This document shows positions 7,232 through 23,879 of a stretch of DNA of 64,000 nt, in pieces (the first letter of the stretch is position 1; every line of letters begins with the position of its first letter). The notes under the pieces are model-generated. The model searched no databases and was not told the origin of the DNA. It was given only the letters and a program-made list of their open reading frames with translations. This stretch comes from Terracidiphilus sp. (lineage in GTDB: Bacteria; Acidobacteriota; Terriglobia; Terriglobales; Acidobacteriaceae). The DNA lies in assembly GCA_035550015.1 (NCBI GenBank), contig DASZRJ010000015.1:73521-137520 (forward strand). Reading direction: 5' to 3'. The position numbers were made by a program, and so were the translations under genes.

Positions 7232-7249
7232 GCCTGTCCTTGAATGTGG

Positions 7250-8038
7250 TTATGAGCGATGAGGCATCTGCGCGTAATAGTGAGGAGCAACTTTTCGACC
7301 ACTAGCTACATAACGCGGCGATTTTCTCAAGCCCATCTTATGTGCCACAAAATCGAACGTGGTACTAATTACTCCGAATCCATAAGTCATGCTTCTCCTG
7401 AAATTGATAGAAGACGCTTCCTTGAAATATTTGGTTGGACATGAAATCTCTCCAAGCCGGAAACCGAACATCACCGCCTGGGCAATCATCTGATTATCGA
7501 AAACAAAATCATCGGAGTTTTCCAACAGCGGCAGGGTCTCAAGAAGTTCACGAGAGAAGGCGCGAAATCCCGTATGGTATTCCGACAACTTCACACCCAG
7601 AAAGAGATTTTGGAAACCGGTTAGGAACCGATTCGCCACGTATTTATAACGCGGCATCCCGCCTTTGAGAGCTCCGCCGCCAAGAATACGCGAAGCCAGA
7701 ACCATGTCATACAGGCCGCTGGCAATCATGCTTGCCATTGCTGGAACCAGCAACGGAGTGTATTGATAGTCCGGATGAACCATCACGACGATATCAGCGC
7801 CCGCAGCGAGCGCTTCGCGGTAACAGGTCTGTTGATTGCGCCCATATCCGTAGTTGGAATCATGAACAAATGTTTGTACTCCCAGCTTTCTGGAAAGTTC
7901 AGCCGTTTGGTCTTTGCTCGAGTCATCAACGAGGATCTTGATGTCCACCAAGTCTGTCAGTTCATTCACCGTGACTTCGAGAGTCTTTTCGGCGTTATAC
8001 GCCGGCATCACTACTGCGACTCGTTTGCCGTTAATCAT
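7250..8038 (-). CDS. GT2 glycosyltransferase, polyprenol-phosphate-sugar synthase (DPM1-like)
   Basis: [38 protein letters not shown]; soluble 262 aa. Confidence 0.85.
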
Positions 8039-8125
8039 GGCGAACTCCCGCTCTCAACATCATTTCTATATGCCTTGGACGGCACTCCGAATATGCTTCT
8101 GTTTCTCTCGTCATGAAATCGAGAA

Positions 8126-9454
8126 TCACGAAGCACACCCCTTTGCCGAGGACCTTTCTCTCAGGAGCCACAAGTAGAAGGCTGCGAAAAAGAGTATGCA
8201 GACTGGAACAGGATTCTCAATTAAGGCAAGGAAAAACCTACTCCCTGTGAAGGCTGTCATACTTTGCAGCTTTTCAGCAAAAATCGCAATAATTGCTCCT
8301 GGAATGTCCGCGCTCGCAGTGAGAAGACACACTGTCAAAACGAGGGCTACTGCCCGGTAGCGGTGTGTCTTTTCCCAGAGTAATGCACAAGCAGGAATGA
8401 TGAGAAGCAGTAACTTTGCATCGTATTGCCTGTGGTACACGGGCAGCAAAGCGAGCGGAACAAGGCTCGCCATTCCCAACCAAAGACGTTCACTGGGATC
8501 TGGCGCTTTATGGAAGTAGTAACACCATGTGGCCAGGAGTAGTGCGGATAAGCCCATCGAAATCGAATTATAGAATTCAGGGTTATCATCAAAATTTGAG
8601 AGTAAAGTCTGCAAACTGATGATCCTGTTTACTCCATGATTTCCTGTTGACTGCGGTCCCGGGTCATTGATTCCACCTCTGGCGGAAGTCTGAGCAATGT
8701 TGCCCCTCCAATCCCTCAACCATTCTGGTGAAATTCGACTGATCCAGCCAACAGAAAGAACACAAAGAAGGAATGCAACGCTGAAAGCCTGAAGAGCTCT
8801 TTTGCGATAGTGCTTATCTACCAGCATACAGAGAAACCAAAGTACGCCTGCGACCTGTGGCTTCAAGGCCAGACCTATCGCCAAAGCCAATACTCCAGCA
8901 GCTTCAAGATACTTCTTTCGAAAACTCCAAAATGCAAAAATACTCAGTCCGATGACGCATGCGGAGATATTGCCCATTCTGTATAGGCTCTGACAATTCG
9001 CCATCAAAAATGCGATGAGGAAGAGTGACAAACGCGGTGAAAATTCGCCCGCCATCTTCCACACAAAGAACGCGCCCAAGGACATTGATGCAAACTGCAG
9101 AAAAATCCAGATGGCTGACGCGCTTGCCCATCCCAACCAAGTGAATGGCAAGACAAAAAGCAATGTTGTCGGGGGATTTACACAGATTGGAATTCCCTGA
9201 AGAAAATTTTGCAAGTCTCTCGGGGTTGTCGGAAATTCGCCATTTTCAACTTTGTAGCGGGCAAGAAATACCGCTTCGTTGTATGGGTTTTCGCCAGAGA
9301 CTGCACAGCGCGCAGCATAATACACGGCTCGAAAGTCAGGTAATCCAGCGATTCTGGAATGTATTCCCCACAAAAGGGAACTAAGCCCAAAGATTAGAAT
9401 GACCAACGCAGCTGTACGGTCCGATACGCGATCGATTCGTGTGCGATTCGTCAT
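8126..9454 (-). CDS. GT87/DUF2029 membrane glycosyltransferase, paralog B
   Basis: DFRAVY, NPY, VNPPT, KPQ, INDPGPQS, LLPVYHRQYD; colinear with paralog A. Confidence 0.75.
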   Translation of the reverse strand: MTNRTRIDRVSDRTAALVILIFGLSSLLWGIHSRIAGLPDFRAVYYAARCAVSGENPYNEAVFLARYKVENGEFPTTPRDLQNFLQGIPICVNPPTTLLFVLPFTWLGWASASAIWIFLQFASMSLGAFFVWKMAGEFSPRLSLFLIAFLMANCQSLYRMGNISACVIGLSIFAFWSFRKKYLEAAGVLALAIGLALKPQVAGVLWFLCMLVDKHYRKRALQAFSVAFLLCVLSVGWISRISPEWLRDWRGNIAQTSARGGINDPGPQSTGNHGVNRIISLQTLLSNFDDNPEFYNSISMGLSALLLATWCYYFHKAPDPSERLWLGMASLVPLALLPVYHRQYDAKLLLLIIPACALLWEKTHRYRAVALVLTVCLLTASADIPGAIIAIFAEKLQSMTAFTGSRFFLALIENPVPVCILFFAAFYLWLLRERSSAKGCAS

Positions 9455-9655: not shown

Positions 9656-9850
9656 TTAAACGTAGGAGTTAAGTGTGGTCGAAATCTTGTTGAAGGCAGC
9701 ATTGATGCCAGTGGCAAGTTGCGACATACCGGCAGTCGCGCCGAAAGCGATCAGAGCAACGACGAGTGCGTACTCGACGAGGTCCTGGCCTTCTTCACGA
9801 TCCTTGAGTTCCTGCAGCTTGATCAACAGCTTGAGGTACAGGTTATTCAT
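9656..9850 (-). CDS. flp: Flp family pilin (Tad major pilin)
   Basis: 21-aa leader ending EEG, then QDLVEY (Flp motif with E+5/Y+6) and a hydrophobic helix; 43-aa mature peptide. Confidence 0.96.
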   Translation of the reverse strand: MNNLYLKLLIKLQELKDREEGQDLVEYALVVALIAFGATAGMSQLATGINAAFNKISTTLNSYV

Positions 9851-9908: not shown

Positions 9909-9924
9909 TGCAATTCTTTTGCCA
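9909..9924 (-). promoter_or_regulatory. Sigma54 (-24/-12) promoter of flp
   Basis: Minus strand TGGCAAAAGAATTGCA: GG-N10-GC with TGGCA and TTGCA flanks, about 60 nt upstream of the ATG; a sigma54 activator is encoded in the locus. Confidence 0.75.
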
Positions 9925-10173: not shown

Positions 10174-10539
10174 TTAACCTTCACTTCCATTTTCAATCGG
10201 CTGCATTTCCAGCAGGTCCCCACACTCTGTTTGTGATTCAGCAATTGCGCCGCACGGCAACTCCAGAATGGAATGTGCAGTAAGACAAGCGGAAAGGCGC
10301 CAAGGTGCTACGCAGCGCTTCACTTTCTTCACGCGAAGAGCGCGATCCAAGTAAATAAGGTCGATTGCAAAACGCATCCAAAAGGTATGAACGGACTCGC
10401 AGGGAACAATCCACAAGCCTCCGCCATGCTCCAGACTATCCCTACCTAACAGACCTTTCGAACGCAGCCTTGGGGTATCCGCAATTCTGAGGCGATCAGC
10501 CACAACTGAATTTCTGGACTTATTGAATACGCAATACAT
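10174..10539 (-). CDS. DUF192 domain protein (start likely ATG 10539; ORF extends to 10608)
   Basis: ADTPRLRSKGLLGR, GLWIVPCESVHTFWMRFAIDLIYLD, ILELPCG. N-terminus MYCVFNKSR aligns with FCVYNRNR of the 15487 paralog. Confidence 0.85.
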   Translation of the reverse strand: MYCVFNKSRNSVVADRLRIADTPRLRSKGLLGRDSLEHGGGLWIVPCESVHTFWMRFAIDLIYLDRALRVKKVKRCVAPWRLSACLTAHSILELPCGAIAESQTECGDLLEMQPIENGSEG

Positions 10540-10737
10540 CTCTGCAACTGGCCGCTTCCCTTGATTGAGCCGATCATTATGCCCAGTCAACATACTAAGT
10601 CTCCCCATTCGAAATATCAGTCTTCACACAATTGCCCTTGGAAGCATCACATTGCTAACAGGCGCATATTTACCACTGATCTTGGGCTATTCGCCGATCA
10701 TATTTCGCAGAGTTTTACAATTCCTTCGCAAAGAAAA

Positions 10738-10808: not shown

Positions 10809-12452
10809 CTACGGACCAGTACTGGAACCTCCAGAACCGCCCATCATGCTCGTCCCCGATCCGGAACCGGTATTCAGTTTTTCTTCTTTCTTCTCATTAA
10901 ACTGTTTCAGCTGCTCCACCGGAATTGTCGCGGGAGGCGGCGGCAATGTATTGGCTGGAGTTTTCTCATCGGGAGTGTACATTGGTATACCCGAATTCGG
11001 AGGAAGGAATGTCCGCGGGTACTTCAGTTGCGGGAGCGGCGCACCAGCTGGAATTGGTGAAACGATCTCCGGCGTTACCAGAACTATTAATTCTGTATTT
11101 GTCCGATTCCGTTGCATCGACTGGAAGAATTTTCCAAGGACAGGGATGTCTCCCAGGAACGGGATCTTCTGAAGGGTTTCAGTTTCACGATTGTCAAGCA
11201 GACCACCAATCGCAAAGCTCTGACCATCCTGCAACTCTACCTCGGTCTCGACCCGGCGCACGGTGATAGCGGGAACTACAAATCCTGAAATTGTAACGGC
11301 GTTCGAGAAGTCGAGCGCACTTACTTCAGGCGCAACCTGCAAGCGGATCGTACCGCGCGGCGTAACGGTCGGAATGAAGGCTAAGCGCACACCGTATTGC
11401 TTGAACTGAATGGTAACCGCACCGCCCACACCGCCCGAAGATCCTTGCACCATGGGGTAGGGATATTCACCGCCGGCCAGGAAGCTCGCTTGCTTTCCAT
11501 CTTCAGCCAATAGATTTGGCTCTGCCAGAACTTCTGCGAGTCCTTTGGTCTCAAGCGCTTTCAAGGTTGCACCCAAATTGAGACCCGGATAAAAGGCAAA
11601 CAGGTTTAACTGGTCTGAAAGAGTTGCAGTTGCGCTGTCTGAGCCGCTGGGGACAGTGACAGTTGGAGGCGAAAATTGCCCCGTCGTGGCTGTTCCAATC
11701 GTGTTGCCGAATCCGGTGCTGAAGATATTTAGCCCTAACGCATTGCTCTTATTCCGATCAATACTGGCAAAGCGAACCTTCAACAAGATCTGCGGCTCTG
11801 AATTCGGAACCACGACGTTAAGAAGATTCACTACCTTACCTGCTGACGATGCAATCTGAACAGCTCTGTCGGAGCTATTCAGATCATTGACAGTACCGCG
11901 CAGAAACACGGATCCACTCTCTTCAGACACACGCAAGTGCTGACCCGGGAGCTCGATCCTCAGCTGGCGTCTCACCGCATCCAGTGCATCGTTGATCGCG
12001 AGCATGCTCTCGCGCACCGTAAGATTAAAGAATTGGCGACCGCCGGAAACGTCCCACACAATAACGCTTGTTTCGCCAACCTTCTTGCCATTTATCAGCA
12101 CCTGGGTTGGGCTCACTGCGACGGCTTCGGCAATTTCTGCGCTGCCCACGGCGATTTGTGTTACAGGCTTGGCCATGTCCAAGACCACAGACTTACCGAC
12201 CGATACCGTAAGGTCGTTTGTCGAATCCTGAGTTGGCGCAGCTACCGGCCGTGATGGCGGAGGCGGGGGAGCAGGAGGTTCGTTCTGATCCTTGTTCGCC
12301 GTTGGTGGCTTTTCCTGGCCGGAGGCAGGAGCCTGGTCCGGATTCGTCGCCGGTGCCTGCCCGGCGTCCTGTGCCCAAAGCACCGGTCCTGAGCCGGAAA
12401 CAATCGCGAAAGCAATCGCATAAAAAAATGCAGCTCTTATTCTGGCTCTCAC
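10809..12452 (-). CDS. cpaC: Tad pilus secretin CpaC/RcpA
   Basis: Signal peptide, Pro-rich linker, pilus N-domain (AVAVSPTQVLINGKKVGETSVIVW), secretin domain (LAEPNL, FLAGGEYP, KIPFLGDIPVLGKFF, ELIVLVTP). Confidence 0.93.
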   Translation of the reverse strand: MRARIRAAFFYAIAFAIVSGSGPVLWAQDAGQAPATNPDQAPASGQEKPPTANKDQNEPPAPPPPPSRPVAAPTQDSTNDLTVSVGKSVVLDMAKPVTQIAVGSAEIAEAVAVSPTQVLINGKKVGETSVIVWDVSGGRQFFNLTVRESMLAINDALDAVRRQLRIELPGQHLRVSEESGSVFLRGTVNDLNSSDRAVQIASSAGKVVNLLNVVVPNSEPQILLKVRFASIDRNKSNALGLNIFSTGFGNTIGTATTGQFSPPTVTVPSGSDSATATLSDQLNLFAFYPGLNLGATLKALETKGLAEVLAEPNLLAEDGKQASFLAGGEYPYPMVQGSSGGVGGAVTIQFKQYGVRLAFIPTVTPRGTIRLQVAPEVSALDFSNAVTISGFVVPAITVRRVETEVELQDGQSFAIGGLLDNRETETLQKIPFLGDIPVLGKFFQSMQRNRTNTELIVLVTPEIVSPIPAGAPLPQLKYPRTFLPPNSGIPMYTPDEKTPANTLPPPPATIPVEQLKQFNEKKEEKLNTGSGSGTSMMGGSGGSSTGP

Positions 12453-13300
12453 TTTTTCTCTCCGGGCGCTTCAAATTTTTGTTCGGACTTCCTGGGACCG
12501 TTGTAGACGGTCACCGTGAAAGGTTCAGCCTTCTTGGGTGCCTTACTGCGGATAGGACCCAGCCGCGGCTTTTCCTTGGAAGCATTCGGGTTTGCAAAGA
12601 GATTAGCAACTGTTGTGCTCTGCACATCGGCGACCTTCGTGTCCAGCGGATTCCGGAGAACGAGCTGAATATGCGATTCCTGTCCGGCCAAAGCCAATAC
12701 CTGTGCCTGTTCCGGAGTGACGAGAAGATTCACCACCTGTACCTGCCGAGGCTTGCCTTCCTGATCCTTTTGAATGTCTGTACCGGCTGAAAGCACTTCA
12801 ATATTCTGGAGGATGGTTCGAATCTCTGTGTTTTGCTGTCCGCCACGCGCTTCCGGGGGAACTCCCGAGACCAGCACGTCCACACGCATACCTGGAGTCA
12901 CGAAGCCTGCAACACCAACTACCTGGTCAACCTTTACAGCGATAGCGCGCATTCCCTGCTTAATGGTTGCAGCCAGACCACCTCCGGAACCCTCGGGTGC
13001 CAAGCGGCTGTCCAGTACTGGTTCACCCTTATAGATCGTCGAAATTACACCGCGCCCGATTGCCTTCTTCGCATCGACGATTGCACCCGGAGGAGCAGTT
13101 CCAACCACCTGCACCGTCGTCAAATCCGGAGCGCTGATAATAGAACCAATTTGCAGGTCCGCCGCAGCTGCAACAACTGTCGTCGTTGCCTGCGTTTTGA
13201 CGGCTGCAATGCGGCTGCCTACCAACCTATACACAATAAAGGCTGACAGCACAGCGACGAGAAACGCACTCAGGAGAATTGTTAAAAGTCGTCGGTTCAT
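12449..13300 (-). CDS. cpaB: Flp pilus assembly protein CpaB/RcpC
   Basis: N-terminal TM, SAF domain, GMRAIAVKV, GVAGFVTPGMRVDVL, NIEVLSAG, LLVTPEQAQ; 4-bp overlap with cpaC. Confidence 0.93.
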   Translation of the reverse strand: MNRRLLTILLSAFLVAVLSAFIVYRLVGSRIAAVKTQATTTVVAAAADLQIGSIISAPDLTTVQVVGTAPPGAIVDAKKAIGRGVISTIYKGEPVLDSRLAPEGSGGGLAATIKQGMRAIAVKVDQVVGVAGFVTPGMRVDVLVSGVPPEARGGQQNTEIRTILQNIEVLSAGTDIQKDQEGKPRQVQVVNLLVTPEQAQVLALAGQESHIQLVLRNPLDTKVADVQSTTVANLFANPNASKEKPRLGPIRSKAPKKAEPFTVTVYNGPRKSEQKFEAPGEKK

Positions 13301-13857: not shown

Positions 13858-15462
13858 GTGGGCTCAGCCAAGCACAAAGAGTTGGAGGATCTGCTCCGGC
13901 GAATTGACGTGCCAGAAGGCGAATCAGAGTCCTCTGAGCAACTCCCTGAGCCTATTCCCATCTCATCGCAACCCGTCAGGGAATGGCGCGTATGGGGCGG
14001 TGGCGCGTCTCAGCAGCCGATTTCTCTTTTTACTGATCGCCCACCCTCCAGACAGCGTCCCGTTTCTTTTATCTTCTCGTTCTTGGTGCACAGTGCTGTT
14101 ATTTGCCTGGTTGCCTTCGGTGTTCTCTATGGCCCGCGCATTCGGTTGAATCCACTCGGACCACACATACTGGTCCGTCAGGTTAACCTCGACGAACCCG
14201 ATTCGCAGATGCAGCGTTCGTCCGGCAGCGGAGCCTACTATCCTGACGAGCAATTGAAGCAGGCGCAGAATGCGGCTGCTTCGGCCGTCAAAGCCGAGAT
14301 GGCTTCGGCCAGGCCCAAACTGCCCGTACGACATCCGGCGCCTCAGACCATCGTTCAACCGGACATTAATGTCGATAAGCTGATCCGGCAGAAGATCCCC
14401 ATGCCGGCAATGCTGCTCTGGTCAGCCAATCGTCCCAAAGTTCGTACCATTACCCCACCTAAGCCGCAGCAGTTGAATGCTTCCAGTGTCATTCCCAAGG
14501 TTGACCGCCCCAATCCGTCGCAAAACCTGAAGGACATTTCGATCACGGATTCGGCATTCAAGTCCAATTTGCCTATGCCTGAAACAAGCACAACTACTCC
14601 GCTTGTGCTTCCCGGCCCGCGCGACGTCGAAAAGATCTCCGAAACCTCTTCTGTTCAGCTTGCACAGGCCAGTGCCGCAAATGTGGCATCCATTTCCGAC
14701 CTTGCGATGAAGCAGGGAGTGGTCGCTCTTCCACCCGTAAACCAGATAGCCGCTGGAAATGGCGGCATCGGCACATCGGGCAAGAATGGCAGCGGTCAGC
14801 ACGGAGAAAAGGAAGGCAATGCAGGAAATGGTACCCGTGGAAATGCGAATGGCCATGCCGGTAGCTCAAGCGGCGCAGGCGGTGGCAATTCGGGCGGCAA
14901 AGGCGCCAGCAATGGTCACGGAACCGGATCCACCAATGGGAACAACCCTGTAGAAAGCGCGGGAAACGGCGCAGGTTTCGAACAGGGGCCTGCACCGACA
15001 CCAATCAGCCGCCCTAAAGACGGTCAGTTTGGTGTTGTTGTGGTGGGCAACTCCGTCGCGCAGGACTTTCCTCAAACAGCTCGATTCTGGAGTGACAGAA
15101 TTGTCTACACTGTTTTCCTTCACGTAGGCCTGCCCAAGACTTGGATTCTGCAGTATTCCGAACCACGCGAGGAAGATGCCTCGGCAACAGGGAACAAGCA
15201 CATCCTTGCTCCGTGGCCCTATTACATCCTGAGGCCGAACATTGATCCCGATGAGGTGAATGCCGACGCGATGATCGTTCATGGCTTTATCAGCGAGAAG
15301 GGAAAATTTGAGAATCTTCAGGTAGTCTTTCCGAACGTGAGCATGGTTGGGAGAGCAGACACTTTACTCAAACAGATTGCACAGTGGCAGTTTAAGCCCG
15401 CAACAGACAACGGCAAGCCGACTCGCGTTGAAACTCTCCTGATCATTCCCCAGGGAGATTAG
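13858..15462 (+). CDS. TonB-family-like single-pass membrane protein
   Basis: RBS GGAGG before GTG. TM FIFSFLVHSAVICL with S-x3-H-x5-L pattern, Pro-rich spacer, Gly/Asn/Ser low-complexity tract, C-terminal TonB_C-like end (HGFISEKG...QWQFKPATDNGKP). Confidence 0.7.
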   Translation: MGSAKHKELEDLLRRIDVPEGESESSEQLPEPIPISSQPVREWRVWGGGASQQPISLFTDRPPSRQRPVSFIFSFLVHSAVICLVAFGVLYGPRIRLNPLGPHILVRQVNLDEPDSQMQRSSGSGAYYPDEQLKQAQNAAASAVKAEMASARPKLPVRHPAPQTIVQPDINVDKLIRQKIPMPAMLLWSANRPKVRTITPPKPQQLNASSVIPKVDRPNPSQNLKDISITDSAFKSNLPMPETSTTTPLVLPGPRDVEKISETSSVQLAQASAANVASISDLAMKQGVVALPPVNQIAAGNGGIGTSGKNGSGQHGEKEGNAGNGTRGNANGHAGSSSGAGGGNSGGKGASNGHGTGSTNGNNPVESAGNGAGFEQGPAPTPISRPKDGQFGVVVVGNSVAQDFPQTARFWSDRIVYTVFLHVGLPKTWILQYSEPREEDASATGNKHILAPWPYYILRPNIDPDEVNADAMIVHGFISEKGKFENLQVVFPNVSMVGRADTLLKQIAQWQFKPATDNGKPTRVETLLIIPQGD

Positions 15463-15486: not shown

Positions 15487-16473
15487 CTATTCGCTCTTGA
15501 TCTTCTTGATGAAGCGCTCAATCGTCTTCTTGCTGGCCCCGTTGTCACTAAACGAATCGTCGCCCGATGAAGAAGCTTTCGATGGCACAAAAGCCAGTCC
15601 AACGCCGTTTTTGTCCCAGCGAGCCACGCGTGTCTGCACAGCAATAGCGTTTCCAGCTTCGTTACCGGATGTATCTGTCCGTTGCAGAGTCATCAGGATC
15701 ATCGTACCTGGAAACCAGCGCTCTTCGGTCAGCAGGAAAATACCTGTATCGCTGATATCGCCGATGTGATATGCCTGAGGCGCGCCACCGGTCCAGTAGT
15801 AGGCCACAAGGCCCGGCACAGCATGGCGCAAGGCCCGCCTGCGATCCGTGGAGAGCCATCGGAGAAAACGTTGGATAAGGGATAGTTTCTTATCTGCTTC
15901 CTTTTCCTGCTGGTCTTTTTGGTCCAGCTTTTGAATGGCGATTTGGAGTTGTCGAGTATGGTCGCGTGAAATGGACGAACGTGAAATGGTAAGGCGAGGT
16001 CCCTCGCTGCGCGAAATTGGTCTGCGTACTCCCGACGTTTGCTGAGGTGGAGGTGGCGGAGGCGCGGGCTGCGATGGATTGGCAAGCTGTGCCAACCGGT
16101 TCTCCATCTCTTCCGCCACGCAAATAACAAGCAAATCACCCGGTTGGGAATGCGACGTCTGGATTGAATGCGCAGGCAAAGCAATCACACTGGAGGCGGG
16201 CGTGGTCAGTGGTTCGATATGAGCTGTGGGGTAAGACTCAACAAGCTGGAGAATGCGATAGTCTTCATCGAGATAGACCAGATCGATCGGAGAAAGTCCA
16301 CGAACCGCAGGAACGCCGCGATATGGAGTCATCCAAAGGCCGCTATCGGCAGTCACCGCCAATTGCTCGATGAGCGATTTGAGTTTCTCCAAAGTCGTGT
16401 CCGCGACCGTGACGCTTAAGCTTAAAAAGCTCTCACGGTTTCGGTTGTACACGCAGAACTTCTGAGGGTCCAT
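15487..16473 (-). CDS. DUF192-like domain fused to C-terminal PilZ domain
   Basis: N-half resembles DUF192 (VADT, GLWMTP, PIDLVYLD, VIALPA). C-half has PilZ RxxxR (RRALR) and DxSxxG (DISDTG) and ends VARWDKNGVGLAF. Confidence 0.8.
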   Translation of the reverse strand: MDPQKFCVYNRNRESFLSLSVTVADTTLEKLKSLIEQLAVTADSGLWMTPYRGVPAVRGLSPIDLVYLDEDYRILQLVESYPTAHIEPLTTPASSVIALPAHSIQTSHSQPGDLLVICVAEEMENRLAQLANPSQPAPPPPPPQQTSGVRRPISRSEGPRLTISRSSISRDHTRQLQIAIQKLDQKDQQEKEADKKLSLIQRFLRWLSTDRRRALRHAVPGLVAYYWTGGAPQAYHIGDISDTGIFLLTEERWFPGTMILMTLQRTDTSGNEAGNAIAVQTRVARWDKNGVGLAFVPSKASSSGDDSFSDNGASKKTIERFIKKIKSE

Positions 16474-16800
16474 AGGCTCTCACCCGTCTACAAATATACG
16501 GTTTGAACTTCAACTTGCACCAAGCGGTTTTGCTATCTGCAACGCCCGGTCGAACCAAGGGGGATTAATTTTCCTTTCAGGAAAAGTGATTGGGACGGCC
16601 ACTGCACACTAGGCAAGTGAATTCATAAGCTCCCATGGAAGAGAAGGGCGCATCGGACTCTGGCGAGCGCCCCACGATTTGAAACACGGCCATCATAACG
16701 CGCCAAAAGACGGCACGCTGGCGGCCATTCACATATCAGGACGTTCCGCGCATCGAACATGCCGCAACAAACATCCAATTTCAATAAATCGCCCAGGTCT

Positions 16801-16896
16801 TTACTTGACCCTGGTGCGGCGACGCTGGATCAGAATAACCAGCACAATGACAAACAGAACCGCGGCAACTGCCCGGATGATTGTTTCATTGCTCAT
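16801..16896 (-). CDS. 31-aa single-TM small protein MSNETIIRAVAAVLFVIVLVILIQRRRTRVK (not in ORF track)
   Basis: Manual translation from ATG 16896 to TAA 16801. Purine-rich RBS GAAGGGAG upstream, 17 nt after the tadC stop; hydrophobic core plus basic tail. Confidence 0.65.
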   Translation of the reverse strand: MSNETIIRAVAAVLFVIVLVILIQRRRTRVK

Positions 16897-16913: not shown

Positions 16914-17825
16914 TCAGTGTGAGAAAAACTTACCAAACGATTGGGCCATCGTGATCATTGCCGGTCCGAGCGTGACAAGGAACAACGATGGAAAGATAAA
17001 CAAAACCAACGGAAATAGGAGCTTGACAGAGAGCTTTGCTGCCTTCTCTTCCACTTCCTGAATCCGTTGAGTCCGAAGCGTATCCGAATGAACACGCAAA
17101 GTTTTGCCTATGCTGGTTCCAAACTGCTCCGCCTGAATCAGCATTGTGACAAGATTCCGGATTGAGTCAACATCGGTGCGTTCCGCCAAGTGTTTCCATG
17201 CCTCGGAACGGGCGCGACCAGCTCGCTGCTCCAGAGCAACGATGCCGAGTTCATCGCTTAAAGCAGGCTGGGCCTTCTTCAGTTCATCGGCAGTGCGCGC
17301 CGTGGCTTGATCAAGGCTCAGTCCGGCTTCCACACAAATAATCAGCATATCCAGCACATCGGGCAGTCCCTTGCGCATTTCCGCCTGCCGATTTGCAATC
17401 TTTCGGCCCAACCAGAAATCCGGGCCGAGAAAACCGAGAGCAGCACATATCGCAAGGACAAAGAACGGACTGAACCGGTAGACACCCGTGGCCAATGCGA
17501 TGATCAGAAGCACGACCGGAACAAGAAATTTGGCGCCGTAAAAATACTTCACGGCCGAGTCTTGGCGATAACCGGCTCGAATCAGACGCTGCTGCTGTAC
17601 CGAGGATTCTTGCTCGGATTTGGGGATGAACTTTTCAACCGATTCCACCATGCCACCGAGAACATCGCGGGTCTCGGCAAGTGTCGAAGCAATGCTCTTC
17701 TTCTTCGGCCGTGGATAAAGGGCGGTCGTAATGCGCTGCTGGATTGCGTCGCGGTAGAAGAACAGCAATCCACCGCTGGCAATCAGCAGGAACATCACGG
17801 CAAACGAAATGATTGCAAATGCCAT
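16914..17825 (-). CDS. tadC: Tad inner-membrane platform protein TadC
   Basis: LPDVLDMLIICVEAGLSLDQA, EQFGTSIGKTLR, AAKLSVKLLFPLVLFIFP. Confidence 0.93.
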   Translation of the reverse strand: MAFAIISFAVMFLLIASGGLLFFYRDAIQQRITTALYPRPKKKSIASTLAETRDVLGGMVESVEKFIPKSEQESSVQQQRLIRAGYRQDSAVKYFYGAKFLVPVVLLIIALATGVYRFSPFFVLAICAALGFLGPDFWLGRKIANRQAEMRKGLPDVLDMLIICVEAGLSLDQATARTADELKKAQPALSDELGIVALEQRAGRARSEAWKHLAERTDVDSIRNLVTMLIQAEQFGTSIGKTLRVHSDTLRTQRIQEVEEKAAKLSVKLLFPLVLFIFPSLFLVTLGPAMITMAQSFGKFFSH

Positions 17826-17834
17826 TTTTGCCTC

Positions 17835-18806
17835 TTACACGTCCAGGTTAACGATCTTACGAATAATCAATCCGCCGATAATGATCATGATGCCGGCCGC
17901 ATACATCAGCTTGATGCCGATGGGAGTCGTCCAGAGAATCCTCATCATGGTCGGATTGATGGTGTACAAAAGGCACCCGAGCACGATAGGGAGCAACGTA
18001 AGAATGACGCCCGTCAATCGTCCCTGGGCCGTATGTGTCAACACTTGACGCTTCAAGCGAAATCGTTCGCGAATGACAGAGGAGGTCTTCTCCAGCACTT
18101 CCGCCAGATTACCGCCGCTTTCGCGTTGAATCAGAATTGCGGTCGCCACGATCTTCAGATCCTGCACGGGCATCCGGGCAATCATGTTTTCCATCGCGAC
18201 TTTGAGCTCAAGACCGTAGTTCTGCTCGTCGAAGCAGGTGCGGAACTCAGTTCCGACCGGATCCGGGCACTCGCGCGATACAAGGCCGGTTGCCGCATTC
18301 AGGCTGTGTCCCACGCGAAGAGCATTCACAATCAGATCAATTGCTTCGGGAAGCCCTTGCTCAAACTTGGACAAACGCTTGTTGCGCTTAAAAACCACAT
18401 AAATCAATGGAGCTGCTGCAGCCACCAGGCCAATGAGCAAGCCGAACAAAATTGCATTCGTCCTGTAATAGACAAGCCAGCCCGCGACAAAGAAGCATCC
18501 GAAACAGAATAAGAGTAACCCGCCAACAGTCCATTTCAAGTCTGCCTGATACAACAGCCTGCGCAGACGTGGAGCCAGTTCCAACTGAGCAAGTGTGCGA
18601 TCCAGCCAGGGAATCGAACTCATCAGCTCGTTCTTGCGCACGTCCACCAAAAGGTCGCTGTTATCGGGCTTGCCCACTGCAAGCGCCGAGTCCAACCGAG
18701 CCATCACTTTCTTGCCTTGTTCCGCCTTGCCTGGGCCCGCCGCAATCATCAGCAGTGCGACGACCACAAAGGCAGCCAGAAAGACGAGGACAATGATGAT
18801 TAACAT
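17835..18806 (-). CDS. tadB: Tad inner-membrane platform protein TadB
   Basis: LPEAIDLIVNALRVGHSL, IQRESGGNLAEVL, TAQGRLTG. Confidence 0.93.
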   Translation of the reverse strand: MLIIIVLVFLAAFVVVALLMIAAGPGKAEQGKKVMARLDSALAVGKPDNSDLLVDVRKNELMSSIPWLDRTLAQLELAPRLRRLLYQADLKWTVGGLLLFCFGCFFVAGWLVYYRTNAILFGLLIGLVAAAAPLIYVVFKRNKRLSKFEQGLPEAIDLIVNALRVGHSLNAATGLVSRECPDPVGTEFRTCFDEQNYGLELKVAMENMIARMPVQDLKIVATAILIQRESGGNLAEVLEKTSSVIRERFRLKRQVLTHTAQGRLTGVILTLLPIVLGCLLYTINPTMMRILWTTPIGIKLMYAAGIMIIIGGLIIRKIVNLDV

Positions 18807-18822: not shown

Positions 18823-20103
18823 TTAGCTCACTTCCGTTGCGCGCTCAAACATAGTAGGTGGCAGGAAGATGCCAGCCGTGCGCAATTGATCGAGGAAGCG
18901 GGGACGAATGTGGCTCGGCTGGAAAACACCCTGCACCTTGCCATTTGGTCCAATTCCCTTCTTCTGGAACGTGAAAATCTCCTGCATCGAAATCACATTC
19001 TCTTCCATGCCGGTGATTTCGTGGATGCTCACGCACTTGCGGCTGCCGTCGCTCAGACGCGTACACTGAATGACCACTGTCAATGCAGAAGCAATCTGCT
19101 GACGCAGTGTCTTTTCCGGCATATTCAGGTTGCTCATAGCAACCATTGATTCCAAACGGGTTAAAGCATCGCGGGCTGTGTTGGCGTGAATCGTGGTCAT
19201 CGATCCTTCGTGACCCGTGTTCATGGCCTGCAACATATCGAAAGCTTCCTCGCCGCGGCACTCACCGATGATGATGCGATCAGGACGCATACGAAGGCAG
19301 TTGATTAGCAGCTGGCGCTGACGAACCGCGCCCTGACCTTCCACGTTTGGCGGACGCGTTTCAAGCCGCACGATGTTTTCCTGTGCGAGCTGTAGTTCGG
19401 CGGCGTCCTCAATTGTAATGACGCGCTCGTTCTGCGGGATGTACTGCGAAAGAATGTTGAGGAAGGTGGTTTTTCCTGCGCCGGTACCACCGGAAATCAG
19501 AACGCTGAGTCGCGCGCGCACCGCAGCCGACAACAACTCCATCATTTCAGCCGAGATGCTCTTCAACTGCACAAGCTGATTCGCAGCCAGGGGACCGGTG
19601 CCGAATCGGCGAATGGAGAGCGATGGGCCGTCCAGAGCCAATGGTGGAATAATTGCGTTCACACGGGAGCCGTCAGGCAAGCGAGCGTCAACCATCGGCG
19701 ACGATTCATCCACGCGACGTCCGACGCGCGACACGATGCGATCGATAATCTGCAGCAGGTGCCTGTCATCGCGGAACGAAGCATCGGCCCGCGTTAACAT
19801 GCCGCCTTTTTCGATGAAGACGTGGTCTTTATCGTTGACGAGGATATCGGAGATCTTGGGATCCTTGAGCAGGGGCTCCAAGGGACCCAGTCCAAAGACC
19901 TCGTCGAGCAAATCGGTTTGAATCTTCTCCTGCTCATCAAAGCTGAGCGGCACACGCCGTTCGCTAATGATCTCGTTGATGATGCTCGAGACTGCCTGGC
20001 GTGCCTGGCTCGAATTGATGCGCGACAGCTTCTCCAAGTCGAGCTTGGAGAGGAGGGTTCTGTGCACTTCCGCTTTGAAATTCTCAAGATTCATAGTTGC
20101 CAC
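18823..20103 (-). CDS. tadA: Tad assembly ATPase TadA/CpaF
   Basis: Walker [10 protein letters not shown], Asp box [14 protein letters not shown], His box [11 protein letters not shown]. Confidence 0.97.
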
Positions 20104-20131: not shown

Positions 20132-21328
20132 TTACTTGAAAAGGCTGAATCCCCTTCTCTTTTCCGACTTCGGCTCCATGCCGCAGGCGGCACGGGCCAT
20201 ATCTTGAATTGCTTTTGAAATCGCCGAGTCCTCCGACGCCAGTGGAATTGCTTCATTCTGCATGCGGCGCACCGTGTAATAGTCGCTCGGTATTCTCCAT
20301 TGAATCGGCCGTGTCAGCGCTTTTTCAATATGCTCTTCGTCCACTCCCATCGACCGGCTGACGTAGCGGTTCAACACGATCTCTAGCTTGGGAGTGCTGG
20401 ATTTGAAAAATTCTGAAATCAACCGGTGCGAGTTGCGAAGTTCCGGAATTCCAGCCTGCATCACCATATAGACCGTGTCTGCACGCTGGAACCATGTGGC
20501 GCCAGTCAGGTCGAATCGCGACCCTGCATCGACCACCACCCAGTCAAACTCCTGCCTTGCAACAGTGAGCAGCTTATCGATGGCGTCATTGCTTGCCTGC
20601 ACATGCGGAAAGCGTCCAGGCGCTCCAAGTACAGGCAAACCCGAGGCATGCTTCATCAGGAGCTTATTGAAAAAGTTGGAATCGAGCCGTTCCGCGTTCT
20701 GTAATGCATCTCCCGTGGAAAACTGCGGCGTCAGTCCAAGACTCAAGGCGGCATCGCCAAGGGGAAGATCCAGGTCGATCAACACCGCGCTTTGGCCGCA
20801 CTCCTGCACCAGGGAAACTGCAAAGTTGCATGCCACCGTGGTGACGCCAGAGCCGCCCTTGCCGCCCATGAAGACAAGTAGCTTACCGCCGGACTTCTGC
20901 TGCGATTTGGGCACAGCCTTCCGCGTGCTCGCGCGATTGAGAGCCTCAGACAGAGCGTTCTGATCGATGGGGTCGGACAGGTATTCGCGAGCACCTGCCC
21001 GCATGGCGCGCACAATCCAGTTTGGATCCACGCGCGACGCATACACAATCACTGTCGATTGTCCCTGCGTAACAATCTCTTCCACCAGAGAAAGAGCGTA
21101 TTCCGGATCGGCTTCAAGATCGATAATGACCGCGTCAAAGCCCTGCTCCAGCAGACGCGGAACATCCTTCAAGGTTGGAGGATAAGTTGAGTACTCACGC
21201 ACCATCGCCGCATGCGACGTGGCAAGAGCGCTTGCCACAGTCCTGCGCCGCTGTTCGTGCGGTCCAATTAGCGCCAATTTCAGTACATGGGCGTCAAGTG
21301 GATCGGGTTCTAAGTTTGTCGTATCCAT
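20132..21328 (-). CDS. cpaE: CpaE/TadZ pilus localisation protein (receiver-like + MinD/ParA-like ATPase)
   Basis: Receiver-like N-domain (AVIID, AMRAGAREYL), deviant Walker A KGGSGVTT, LIDLDL, VVVDAG. Confidence 0.9.
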   Translation of the reverse strand: MDTTNLEPDPLDAHVLKLALIGPHEQRRRTVASALATSHAAMVREYSTYPPTLKDVPRLLEQGFDAVIIDLEADPEYALSLVEEIVTQGQSTVIVYASRVDPNWIVRAMRAGAREYLSDPIDQNALSEALNRASTRKAVPKSQQKSGGKLLVFMGGKGGSGVTTVACNFAVSLVQECGQSAVLIDLDLPLGDAALSLGLTPQFSTGDALQNAERLDSNFFNKLLMKHASGLPVLGAPGRFPHVQASNDAIDKLLTVARQEFDWVVVDAGSRFDLTGATWFQRADTVYMVMQAGIPELRNSHRLISEFFKSSTPKLEIVLNRYVSRSMGVDEEHIEKALTRPIQWRIPSDYYTVRRMQNEAIPLASEDSAISKAIQDMARAACGMEPKSEKRRGFSLFK

Positions 21329-21430
21329 CTTCTTAGTTCAAAGCTCCAGAGTGCATGCTGCTGAGCTCATGGTAATTGCTGATTTTCGGGTGCGTCGTCA
21401 GCCTACTGTACATGGCGTACTGTTCTAATC

Positions 21431-21946
21431 TCAATGAGAAAAGAAAGAGAACAGGGTACCAATGGCAATTGCCGGCGCATACGGCATCTTTCTCGCTTTG
21501 GGATTGGAAAGCACCAAATTTTCTGATGGCTTCGATCCGTGTCCCTTCCAGCCAAAAAGCAAGTCGCCCGCGCCGGTAAGCATCTCTCCCAGAAAACCTC
21601 CCCAGACCGCCATACCCAGTGCAATCAAGCCTCCAGCCATCGCGGTTACCACGATCGCAATCAGCATCTGTCCCGGGCCTATCCAGGCTCCAATGGCGGC
21701 ACATAACTTCACGTCGCCCATTCCCATGCCGCCCATGAATGCCAAAATGCCAAATACCAGCAGCCCTAGCCCCAGCCCGGCAAGACTATCTTTTAGGCCG
21801 TGCCATCCTCCCGCCCAGGTTGAGAGTGTGATCCCGGCAAGCAGGAATGAGAAATTCAGCCAATTTGGGATACGGCGGGTCCGCATATCGGTGTAGGTGG
21901 CCACGGTAATGAGCACCAGCACGGGCCACCAGGCATACGAATGCAA
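21431..21946 (-). CDS. cpaA: Prepilin peptidase CpaA/TadV (A24); start re-called to TTG 21946
   Basis: Catalytic YTD...RRIPN and GMGDVKL, MPYAPAIA. SD GGAGG precedes TTG-CAT-TCG. The longer track start overlaps a sigma54 box. Confidence 0.88.
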   Translation of the reverse strand: MHSYAWWPVLVLITVATYTDMRTRRIPNWLNFSFLLAGITLSTWAGGWHGLKDSLAGLGLGLLVFGILAFMGGMGMGDVKLCAAIGAWIGPGQMLIAIVVTAMAGGLIALGMAVWGGFLGEMLTGAGDLLFGWKGHGSKPSENLVLSNPKARKMPYAPAIAIGTLFSFFSH

Positions 21947-21990
21947 AAGGAGCCTCCTCCCCTTCTTCTTCTGGCAAACACAGGCTTTCA

Positions 21991-22006
21991 AGCAATTGTC
22001 GCTCCA
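21991..22006 (-). promoter_or_regulatory. Sigma54 (-24/-12) promoter of cpaA-cpaE-tadABC
   Basis: Minus strand TGGAGCGACAATTGCT: GG-N10-GC with TTGCT, 45 nt upstream of the re-called start. Confidence 0.55.
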
Positions 22007-22086: not shown

Positions 22087-22484
22087 GCAAAGAGGTAATG
22101 TGACGCTCGATTGAGCTCACGCCGTATAACGCTGCAGCGCCCATATCAGGTACCTAAAGTTGCAACTGGATGCTAAATCCCGTAACGGTGCGCATACTAC
22201 CCGGGCTCGTTACTATGGAGCAATAGGCGATTGGTATTCCCGTTGAATTACGGCTTTAGAACACCGATTATAATGGCAACCAATCACAGGGAAGGTTGTT
22301 TATGAGAATGCGTTTTTTCCTCCTGAAGAGTTCCAGAACGCATTGACATAGTAGACTTTCCACACAGAGTAGATAGTAGAGTTTGTGTCCTGGTTCTCCT
22401 GCAGGGTATGGTTTTTTGTTTTCTATTGCCGCAACCGACACAAGAATTGCATTGGCACTTCCAAGGAAGACGGAAGACAAACGG

Positions 22485-23879
22485 ATGATACGAATTGGAC
22501 TTATTTCCGAAGATCCGCAAATGCACATGCTTCTGTCCTCAGGCATGGGCAGAGAATTCCGCGTCTTCCGAGAATCCAATATTAATGGCATTGAAAAGAA
22601 ACTGGCTTCTTCCGGCTATGAAGTGCTCATCCTCGACTTCGCCACAATGGCCGATGTGACAGCCAATCATCTTGAACGAATTGAAACGATTCTGGCCTTC
22701 CGCGTCCCCATGATTGTTATGGCCGAAGAGGAACTGCAGACGAAAGCCGATGAAGTCATTGAAATGGGCGCCCTTCGCAGTTGCCGTCGTCCACCTTCAA
22801 TTCGCGACCTGAAAGAAATGGTACTTCGCGCCAAGGAATCCTGTGATGGCGAATCACCCGCGCAGAATTCTTCAGCGATCATCGACTCCGATTCCAGCTG
22901 CGACCGTATGTTGGGCAGCAGCACCCGCATGCGTGCCGTTTACCGACAGGTACGGCAGGTAGCCAATATCAACGCCGCCGTACTCGTACAGGGAGAAAGC
23001 GGCTCGGGCAAGGAGCTTATCGCGCGCGCGATTCACAATCTTGGCTCCCGCGCCGGCAAACCCTTCATTGCTGTCTCTTGCAGCGCAATTCCGGAAACGC
23101 TCATTGAGTCTGAGCTTTTTGGCCACGAAAAGGGCGCTTTCACCGGCACTGTTGGCTCACGTGAGGGCTTTTTTGAACAGGCGCAGGATGGAACACTTTT
23201 CCTTGATGAAATCGGCGATCTGAGCCCATTCACTCAGGTAAAGCTACTGCGCGTCCTTCAGGAAATGGAGTTCAATCGACTCGGCAGCACTCGTATCATT
23301 CCGCTGCGGGCTCGCCTCATCTTTGCCACGCACCAGAATCTTCCCAAACTCATCGCCGAGGGTAAATTCCGCCAGGACCTCTATTACCGCATCAACGTGA
23401 TTCGCATCGAAGCTCCTCCGCTGGCTGAGCACCCTGAAGATATTCCGCAGATTGTCTCGCATTTCCTGCGCCAGTACTCCACGCTCTTTGACAAGCCAAT
23501 GGATTCGATCGAACCTGAAGCCTTGGCCGTTCTGCAGAGCTACTCGTGGCCCGGAAATGTGCGCGAGCTGGAAAATCTCGTCCAGCGCGCAATTGCCATG
23601 GCGCCCGGACGTGTTTTACGCGCTGAAGACCTGCCCATCACCCTGCCCTCCGACAAGGTGATAGAGTTCAACGAAATCAATCCCGAAGGCTCGTTTGAAG
23701 AACAGTTGCGTGAATACAAAATCAAGATTGCAACGGATGCTGTTCGCCAGCACAACGGCAACAAGACCCTTGCCGCCCGCAGTCTCGGCATCTCGCGCGC
23801 CTACCTGCACCGGCTCATCCGGCCTACGGATTCGGAAACCCCCTTCGATCAGGATGACGTGGGCTCGGCATCGATGTAG
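22485..23879 (+). CDS. Sigma54-dependent enhancer-binding protein (NtrC/Fis family) with atypical receiver domain
   Basis: GESGSGKE, ESELFGHEKGAFTGT, LFLDEI, FRQDLYYRIN, WPGNVRELEN, Fis-type HTH (GNKTLAARSLGISR). Start re-called to ATG 22485. Confidence 0.92.
   Translation: MIRIGLISEDPQMHMLLSSGMGREFRVFRESNINGIEKKLASSGYEVLILDFATMADVTANHLERIETILAFRVPMIVMAEEELQTKADEVIEMGALRSCRRPPSIRDLKEMVLRAKESCDGESPAQNSSAIIDSDSSCDRMLGSSTRMRAVYRQVRQVANINAAVLVQGESGSGKELIARAIHNLGSRAGKPFIAVSCSAIPETLIESELFGHEKGAFTGTVGSREGFFEQAQDGTLFLDEIGDLSPFTQVKLLRVLQEMEFNRLGSTRIIPLRARLIFATHQNLPKLIAEGKFRQDLYYRINVIRIEAPPLAEHPEDIPQIVSHFLRQYSTLFDKPMDSIEPEALAVLQSYSWPGNVRELENLVQRAIAMAPGRVLRAEDLPITLPSDKVIEFNEINPEGSFEEQLREYKIKIATDAVRQHNGNKTLAARSLGISRAYLHRLIRPTDSETPFDQDDVGSASM

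Follow-up and report, generated by a model that had tools for sequence, protein, structure and literature searches.

The Tad (type IVc) pilus loci of the Acidobacteriaceae contain a gene in which a paralog of a small protein of the same locus is joined to a domain of the kind that binds the second messenger cyclic di-GMP (c-di-GMP). This gene was analysed in a window of 64,000 nucleotides (nt) of Terracidiphilus sp. (GenBank assembly GCA_035550015.1, contig DASZRJ010000015.1, positions 73,521 to 137,520 of the forward strand), where it occupies positions 15487-16473 of the minus strand and encodes a protein of 328 amino acids (aa) followed by a stop codon. The N-terminal part of the protein has the fold of DUF192 (UPF0127), its C-terminal part is a PilZ domain, and a free DUF192 protein without a leader peptide is encoded in the same locus. 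The main new result is that leaderless DUF192 genes are linked to Tad loci in Acidobacteriota, Pseudomonadota, Actinomycetota and Bacillota; across the Acidobacteriaceae, the free DUF192 and the fusion are both fixed parts of the Tad locus. We favour, with moderate confidence, the reading that in this family the fusion works in the cytoplasm as a dedicated c-di-GMP receptor of the Tad pilus machine. A first-pass annotation had described a canonical DUF192 gene and a degenerate DUF192 copy in one pilus locus, the latter joined through a proline-rich linker and a charged helix to a PilZ domain with both c-di-GMP motifs intact. This layout is borne out below in all its parts, including the Tad and Flp genes that Pfam identifies around both copies, save for the word degenerate: the HTF/MRF core of DUF192 is indeed replaced in the fusion, but the term misleads because the domain is divergent and yet strongly conserved.

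The fusion consists of an N-terminal DUF192-fold domain (residues 1-131, positions 16081-16473), a disordered proline-rich linker (residues 132-171, 15961-16080), a helical segment that is first charged and then amphipathic and ends in RFLRWL just before the RxxxR motif (residues 172-208, 15850-15960), and a PilZ domain that carries RxxxR, DxSxxG and a C-terminal helix (residues 209-328, 15490-15849). The start codon is backed by the N-termini of homologs, which read ME.QKYCVYN in a 38-sequence alignment. In an AlphaFold2 (AF2) model built on 38 homologs (mean predicted local distance difference test score, pLDDT, 76; predicted template modelling score, pTM, 0.42), the N-domain is folded over residues 1-131 with pLDDT mostly 79-95, residues 135-171 of the linker (sequence NPSQPAPPPPPPQQ) fall below 50, helices are found within 172-208 (at 172-195 and 199-208), and a beta-barrel with a C-terminal helix spans residues 222-327. 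The linker varies in sequence and length among the 38 family members. Within the helix, W206 is invariant and L207 nearly so, and the motif F/L-x-R-W-L/F to which they belong also occurs in long-linker paralogs of the fusion and in a stand-alone PilZ paralog, both discussed below. A signal peptide is absent from the fusion and from the free DUF192 alike, and as leaderless proteins both are therefore predicted to be cytoplasmic.

That the N-domain is a DUF192 domain is not evident from its Pfam score, 23.3 bits against a gathering cut-off of 27 (PF02643), although the match spans positions 2-94 of the 96 in the profile (residues 20-115 of the protein). The free copy, in comparison, is a canonical member: its open reading frame (ORF) extends over 10174-10608 on the minus strand, its true start is M24, and the resulting protein of 121 aa (10174-10539) contains SVHTFWMRFAIDLIYLD and scores 68.1 bits. 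In a direct BLASTP comparison the two copies are 29% identical across 112 aa (E 3e-16), hhalign of the family alignments against each other gives a probability of 99.1% (E 1.8e-18, 111 columns), and the free copy used as a tblastn query matches the fusion N-domain in 79 of 80 related loci. PDB sequence searches with the fusion and the free DUF192 found no relatives for either protein, so that a fold search was needed. With Foldseek, the two DUF192 proteins of solved structure, 3pjy and 3m7a, rank as the top PDB matches of the fusion model, with template modelling (TM) scores of 0.60-0.65 (normalised to the target); the model of the free DUF192 (pLDDT 91.7) matches the same two structures with TM scores of 0.75-0.79, and its fold search returned no functionally characterised structural relative. 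A hidden Markov model (HMM) of the N-domain matches all 28 DUF192 proteins tried, with scores that are highest for the acidobacterial free copies (41-61 bits), intermediate for other leaderless copies (14-43 bits) and lowest for a leader-bearing copy (10.9 bits). This gradient fits a local duplication of the Tad-locus DUF192 within the acidobacterial lineage, of which the two copies are lineage-specific paralogs.

Divergence between the two copies is concentrated at particular positions. The segment GLWIVPCESVHTFWMRFAIDLIYLD of the free copy aligns at exact spacing with GLWMTPYRGVPAVRGLSPIDLVYLD of the fusion, the HTFWM block being swapped for PAVRG, and H-T-F-x-M is retained by none of the 80 fusion orthologs. 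When the fusion N-domains (38 sequences) are compared by column with leaderless DUF192 proteins (27 sequences; residue numbers of the free copy), the latter prove invariant at ten positions: A20, R26, G29, L30, P46, H51, M55, I59, E93 and G107. The fusion family keeps A20, L30, P46, I59 (as I or V) and G107 and replaces the other five, R26 by Q or K, G29 by V, A or S, H51 by P (37 of 38 members), M55 by G (35 of 38) and E93 by V or A. It has in turn invariants of its own, namely Y9, N10, R13, S15-L19, W47, G53, E79, S80, P82, G112, D113, C118, E122 and M123, with H102 nearly invariant (36 of 38). In all, about 30 positions of the N-domain are invariant among the 38 sequences, which makes it as strongly conserved as the PilZ domain. 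Loss of residues thus appears selective, with structural residues retained, and because half of the family invariants are replaced while others have been gained, the domain is best described from these alignments as a divergent, repurposed paralog under strong constraint, and neither as a decaying copy nor as a typical DUF192 member.

The PilZ domain scores 28.2 bits against a gathering cut-off of 22.5 (PF07238, residues 210-297). Its motifs RRRALR (R212, R216) and DISDTG (D239, S241, G244) are invariant among the 38 aligned sequences, and RxxxR together with DxSxxG is found in all 80 orthologs collected from genomes at species level. In the model, the strands of the barrel lie between residues 222 and 295 and the C-terminal helix at 315-327, with pLDDT of about 81-90, and the PDB matches that rank after the DUF192 structures are the c-di-GMP-bound PilZ domains of Alg44 and PA0012; further matches of the PilZ fold are MapZ, YcgR, MotI and PlzD. 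By every testable criterion (profile, motifs and fold), the domain thus reads as one of the canonical c-di-GMP-binding type, and the fusion is predicted to bind the nucleotide. These features also bear on the idea that only the PilZ domain matters, in which case the N-domain would be an inert remnant, or PilZ would be a non-binding adaptor like the PilZ proteins that bridge FimX and PilB in Xanthomonas and Pseudomonas. PilZ-type adaptors of pilus ATPases do exist (as reviewed in the literature), and an N-domain that scores under the Pfam cut-off and has lost the canonical DUF192 motifs would suit the first version. However, the N-domain is confidently folded and as conserved as the domain to which it is attached, and RxxxR and DxSxxG are retained in every ortholog whereas the non-binding adaptors lack them, which leaves this idea highly improbable in either version.

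The position of the gene in the genome is as constant as its motifs. A word-indexed search found 537 homologs of the fusion, of which the 120 listed are almost all full-length and mostly 318-350 aa long; those named among them are from metagenome-assembled genomes (MAGs) of Terracidiphilus. A scan of one genome per species gave 141 fusion loci, and the best 80 of these were kept as the set of related loci to which the counts of loci and orthologs in this text refer. Nearly all 80 are labelled Acidobacteriaceae, Terracidiphilus or Acidobacteriota, and the set includes an isolate, Occallatibacter savannae AB23. One locus (L004, CAWAVJ010000031.1) is labelled 'uncultured Alphaproteobacteria bacterium'; its Tad-locus coordinates and percent identities are, in the synteny mapping, the same as those of the Acidobacteriaceae MAG L005, and it is probably a mislabelled or contaminated bin. 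In the Acidobacteriaceae loci the gene order is conserved as TadV-CpaE-CpaF-TadB-TadC-micro-ORF-fusion, followed further on by CpaB-CpaC-DUF192-Flp. TadC lies directly upstream of the fusion in 77 of the 80 loci, among short-linker orthologs that span 40-91% identity, and the free DUF192 follows CpaC in 63 of the 70 loci with enough flanking sequence. The seven exceptions comprise three paralog copies outside Tad loci, three loci with an insertion of about 8 kb after the fusion, in which the CpaB-CpaC-DUF192 block, if present, would lie beyond the fetched flank, and one other.

A third small gene shares this arrangement. In the gap between TadC and the fusion lies a micro-ORF of 31 aa (16801-16896, minus strand), the product of which (MSNETIIRAVAAVLFVIVLVILIQRRRTRVK) has a single transmembrane segment and a basic tail, RRRTRVK, and has no Pfam match. 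It is present in 67 of the 80 related loci, in one or two tandem copies and always in the TadC-fusion gap, and is missing from the three paralog loci outside Tad loci. Its codons vary at 24 of 24 third positions compared with 16 first and 11 second positions, a pattern that marks it as coding sequence and, by this comparison, apparently as a real gene under strong purifying selection. The whole gap measures 395-924 nt across loci (median 604; 440 in the window). Between the micro-ORF and the fusion it forms a leader of about 330 nt, which is kept in length and contains no conserved block except the ribosome-binding region, and a scan of this leader for sigma-70 promoters and terminators gave nothing better than shuffled sequence. 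A sequencing run that may be of RNA contains contigs 100% identical to Flp (the deepest), CpaC, CpaB, TadC and the fusion leader (16544-16733), weak evidence of expression because the RNA nature of the run is a guess and carry-over of DNA is possible.

Outside the Acidobacteriota, DUF192 genes were sampled in two ways: plasmids were searched by tblastn with the free copy as query (16 records), and proteins by a word-indexed search with the Moraxella DUF192 (24 more proteins). Ten non-acidobacterial contexts with a leaderless DUF192 were thus obtained, from genomes of Pseudomonadota, Actinomycetota and Bacillota and from metagenomic contigs, and in nine of them the gene, of about 110 aa, lies in or beside a Tad or type IV pilus locus. 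A Moraxella bovis plasmid carries CpaB-secretin-ATPase-TadB-TadC-DUF192-TadE, and three Streptomyces plasmids CpaF-TadB-TadC-small ORF-TadE-TadE-TadG-LysM-DUF192. On an Alkaliphilus plasmid the gene directly follows that of a prepilin peptidase, and in Bacillus and Virgibacillus it is divergent from Flp-TadV-TadE-Tad-RcpC-TadZ-CpaF-TadB-TadC. The metagenomic contigs show T2SSE-T2SSF-polysaccharide deacetylase-DUF192 (L087), T2SSF-DUF192 with an overlap of 4 nt (L088), T2SSF-T2SSF-DUF192-TPR-TadE-RHS (L174) and RcpC-secretin-FHA/T2SSE-T2SSF-T2SSF-DUF192-TadE (L176), and only contig L175 has a leaderless DUF192 with no pilus genes. Four contexts (Moraxella, L088, L174 and L176) have DUF192 directly behind the second T2SSF gene, the slot that in the Acidobacteriaceae belongs to the fusion, and in L088 and L176 the stop and start codons of the two genes overlap. 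A metagenome scan with an alignment of leaderless DUF192 proteins added no taxonomic breadth, its best 80 matches being all acidobacterial orthologs. A DUF192 protein of 112 aa has in addition been described at the 3' end of the tad operon in Bulleidia extructa and Helcococcus ovis (PMC12786226, 2025). The first-pass annotation had proposed that DUF192 as such is a Tad-interacting module. For the leaderless subfamily an association with Tad has real comparative support; the sole leader-bearing canonical DUF192 looked at, on a Halomonas plasmid, has a transmembrane leader and no pilus genes around it.

Several further genes lie near DUF192 in these loci. Two of them were noted in contigs L087 (7014-7877 and 10780-11451) and L088 (8387-9046). 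In L087 a polysaccharide deacetylase gene lies directly upstream of DUF192, the annotation that Caulobacter CpaM also bears; the idea that CpaM is itself a DUF192 protein was rejected, as the papers describe a polysaccharide deacetylase. The other gene encodes an ICMT/PEMT-like membrane methyltransferase and is found beside DUF192 or in its vicinity in two Tad loci that are unrelated to each other. Just downstream of DUF192, loci of the Moraxella type (L081, 9344-14914; L174, 2519-8663; L176, 8335-14523) contain a large gene of the TadE family and an RHS/YD-repeat toxin gene; L174 has a TPR gene in between, and L176 an SLT gene. This is a hint that contact-dependent delivery of toxins is what these Tad variants are for.

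The neighbours of the free gene also raise the question of where in the machine DUF192 would act. One proposal is that it acts on the pilin substrate, either in the cytoplasm, chaperoning or otherwise handling the leader of the Flp prepilin, or as a helper of TadV, and that the fusion gates pilin supply according to c-di-GMP. In the window and in related loci the gene immediately precedes Flp; it is divergent from Flp-TadV in Bacillus and Virgibacillus and directly behind the prepilin peptidase gene in Alkaliphilus, genes for TadE pseudopilins adjoin it in Moraxella and L176, with one also close by in L174, and the family-invariant R, H and E might form a peptide-binding or catalytic site. These adjacencies cannot, however, separate the pilin or its peptidase from the platform or motor as target; the position behind the second T2SSF gene in four contexts, shared by the fusion after TadC, speaks against the pilin step, and the fold search found no structural relative with a known peptide-handling function. 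A target at the pilin or peptidase step is in our view distinctly unlikely.

In the mechanism that we propose for the favoured reading, a dedicated Tad receptor, the leaderless DUF192 accessory gene of the Tad locus would have been duplicated and the copy joined to PilZ through a disordered tether and a helix. The free protein would serve as a cytoplasmic accessory of the inner-membrane and cytoplasmic core of the machine, that is, of the TadB/TadC platform, the CpaF ATPase or the prepilin and peptidase step. The N-domain of the fusion would keep the fold and exchange the invariant polar core (R, H and E, together with G and M) for a new conserved surface, and because of this exchange it might bind either to this machine or to the free DUF192 while not carrying out the latter's own function. 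Binding of c-di-GMP to RxxxR and DxSxxG would then reorder the RxxxR arm and the adjoining RFLRWL helix, and this rearrangement would alter whether the tethered N-domain engages or releases its target, so that the c-di-GMP level would gate the assembly of pili or how their extension and retraction are balanced. The first-pass annotation had likewise seen in the fusion a c-di-GMP-switchable partner or antagonist, an interpretation that finds support in part. A bolder version, to which we give little credence, makes the leaderless DUF192 an unrecognised cytoplasmic component of Tad systems in monoderm and diderm bacteria, with the PilZ paralog competing with it or capturing it and so toggling the single, bifunctional CpaF motor and the TadB/TadC platform between assembly and retraction.

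Several observations weigh against a dedicated Tad receptor. The support for the role of the fusion is comparative throughout. Three of the 80 short copies (L048, L071 and L073) sit outside Tad loci, the first of them adjoining the gene of an extracytoplasmic function (ECF) sigma factor. An exhaustive profile search gave 2033 hits and 540 representative clusters at E<=1e-30, and many of the best 150 listed are longer proteins (550-890 aa) in which roughly 300-650 low-complexity residues part an N-domain from a helix and PilZ of the same kinds as in the fusion; named carriers are Terracidiphilus MAGs and Telmatobacter sp. DSM 110680, and some variants bear a further PilZ at the N-terminus or a receiver domain at the C-terminus. 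All three long-linker genes looked up (L091, 6977-12400; L092; L093; proteins of 700-890 aa) lie in a conserved block of Telmatobacter and Terracidiphilus that contains no Tad genes and consists of a BON protein, a 79-aa ORF, the paralog and a stand-alone PilZ protein of 147 aa with the same RWL helix and both c-di-GMP motifs. The fusion lacks five of the ten free-DUF192 invariants and has gained a conserved surface of its own. At a pTM of 0.42, the structural model says nothing about contact between its two domains. The wide gap upstream of the gene, in which the micro-ORF is followed by a non-conserved non-coding part, suggests that the fusion may have its own regulation. The non-acidobacterial sample is small, with ten contexts, and over-represents plasmids and the relatives of a single Moraxella query, and DUF192 is not known from the classical Tad loci of Aggregatibacter, Caulobacter and Pseudomonas, which makes it an accessory and no core part of the system.

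Since the long-linker genes have a non-Tad neighbourhood, the family extends beyond the Tad locus, in which only the orthologous group with short linkers is embedded. The fusion could then belong to a general acidobacterial family of c-di-GMP effectors, the N-domain of which has a target unrelated to pili, and the slot after TadC would be no more than the site of the duplication. The many long two-domain forms, the short copies outside Tad loci, the altered invariants of the N-domain and the long non-conserved leader all fit such a family. Against it stands the constancy of the short-linker orthologs, which hold the slot after TadC in nearly every locus across a wide range of identities, together with the micro-ORF and the free DUF192, a retention that is hard to explain without a functional link; moreover, paralogs encoded elsewhere could act on the Tad machine in trans. 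We regard a target unrelated to pili as unlikely on balance.

The Tad locus of the window contains all the components of such a system, as identified by Pfam. On the minus strand, in the order of the conserved synteny, these are the prepilin peptidase TadV/CpaA (21431-21991, 186 aa, Peptidase_A24 70.7 bits), which completes the tad operon of the window, a CpaE/TadZ-like protein with a receiver-like part and a ParA/MinD ATPase (20132-21328, AAA_31 and CbiA, with Response_reg just below its cut-off), the CpaF/TadA ATPase (18823-20103, T2SSE 213.5 bits), the platform proteins TadB (17835-18806, T2SSF 63.6 bits) and TadC (16914-17825, T2SSF 67.3 bits), CpaB/RcpC (12449-13300, RcpC 102.6 bits and SAF), the CpaC/RcpA secretin (10809-12452, Secretin 166.6 bits and T2SS-T3SS_pil_N) and the Flp pilin (9656-9850, Flp_Fap 33.1 bits). 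A candidate gene of conserved-unknown type, ORF 21333-21704 (minus strand, 123 aa), was discarded as spurious because it overlaps the frame of the prepilin peptidase. Between the fusion and CpaB, a gene on the plus strand that is convergent with the fusion (13858-15462) encodes a membrane protein of 534 aa and is conserved at this place and on the opposite strand in 65 of 70 related loci; the protein has one transmembrane segment, a long low-complexity middle rich in Gly, Asn and Ser, and no Pfam match at E 0.001, a TonB_C-like C-terminus scoring 15 bits, below the cut-off. Directly after Flp, a domain search finds glycosyltransferase genes in the order GT87, GT2 and GT87 (5885-9454, minus strand), an order that recurs in many related loci and suggests that glycosylation of the pilin or of the surface is coupled to the pilus locus.

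Transcription of the pilin gene has its own signature. In the window, a -24/-12 element of the sigma-54 type (TGGCAAAAGAATTGCA, 9909-9924, minus strand) precedes the Flp start by about 60 nt, a similar element is found 71-79 nt before the ATG in 44 of 76 Flp genes of related loci, and a gene for a sigma-54 enhancer-binding protein (22383-23879, plus strand, Sigma54_activat 227 bits) flanks the tad operon in divergent orientation. Because of the conserved element and the flanking activator gene, transcription of Flp is probably sigma-54 dependent. Upstream of the fusion, a sigma-54 element was found in 3 of 80 loci, which is the level expected by chance. An Rfam scan of the whole window at gathering thresholds returned no match and thus no c-di-GMP riboswitch, and the region from 29.5 to 52 kb holds housekeeping genes, among which a scan of 10 large ORFs found no domain related to Tad or to c-di-GMP turnover.

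These results are of interest beyond the locus itself. In Tad pili a single ATPase serves extension as well as retraction, and a review treats its switching as an unsolved problem; c-di-GMP has been implicated in surface colonisation by Caulobacter. In the literature searched, no characterised PilZ receptor or dedicated c-di-GMP effector for Tad pili was found, PilZ genes near the tad genes of Bdellovibrio are mentioned in passing, and the PilZ domain survey that was checked does not discuss a DUF192-PilZ architecture. Coupling a PilZ domain to a Tad accessory paralog, with its gene fixed in the locus, the fusion is an obvious candidate for such an effector. DUF192, a widespread family with two crystal structures, gains a lead to its function in the form of a concrete context across phyla, often behind the second platform gene. 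The fusion would also illustrate a general route to building a sensor, by duplicating an accessory of a machine, stripping it of its functional core and tethering it to a second-messenger domain. For the Acidobacteria, a soil phylum that is abundant and hard to culture, it offers a pointer to the control of adhesion by c-di-GMP.

Among known systems, the free DUF192 is closest to the protein of Bulleidia and Helcococcus mentioned above, which is likewise short and consistently Tad-adjacent and belongs to the same leaderless class as the copies of Moraxella, Streptomyces, Bacillus, Virgibacillus and Alkaliphilus and of the metagenomic contigs; its description is confined to a single Bacillota lineage, with no mechanism and no PilZ fusion, whereas a free copy and a fusion occur together in the acidobacterial locus. 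The solved structures 3PJY (R01717 of Sinorhizobium meliloti) and 3M7A (Saro_0823 of Novosphingobium aromaticivorans) share the fold of both copies in the window. They are structural-genomics entries, the first being described as a signal-peptide protein, and DUF192 is mentioned in a paper on the periplasmic proteome of N. aromaticivorans, in contrast to the window copies, which are leaderless and lie in a Tad locus. As a receptor, the fusion resembles the flagellar brakes YcgR, FlgZ and MotI, which are two-domain cytoplasmic proteins with a beta-rich N-domain and a canonical C-terminal PilZ domain with RxxxR and DxSxxG, and which are encoded with, and proposed to act on, the motor of a surface appendage. 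It is not a member of the YcgR family and differs from these proteins in that its N-domain is a DUF192 paralog and no PilZN or xPilZ barrel, with no Pfam match to YcgR (PF07317) or YcgR_2 (PF12945) even at E<=1, in that about 80 aa of disorder and helix replace their short c-di-GMP-binding linker, and in that its associated machine is the Tad pilus and not the flagellum. The other point of comparison is the c-di-GMP-linked control of type IV filaments through a cytoplasmic ATPase or platform, as in the PilZ-FimX-PilB system (PilZ being PA2960 or XAC1133) and in MshE with its MshEN domain. MshE binds c-di-GMP through its own N-terminal domain. PilZ adaptors of the PA2960/XAC1133 type, in turn, are without the motifs that bind c-di-GMP, as reviewed in the literature. 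Unlike these regulators of type IVa and MSHA pili, the acidobacterial protein combines a canonical PilZ domain with a paralog of a pilus-locus accessory protein, and does so in the type IVc Tad system.

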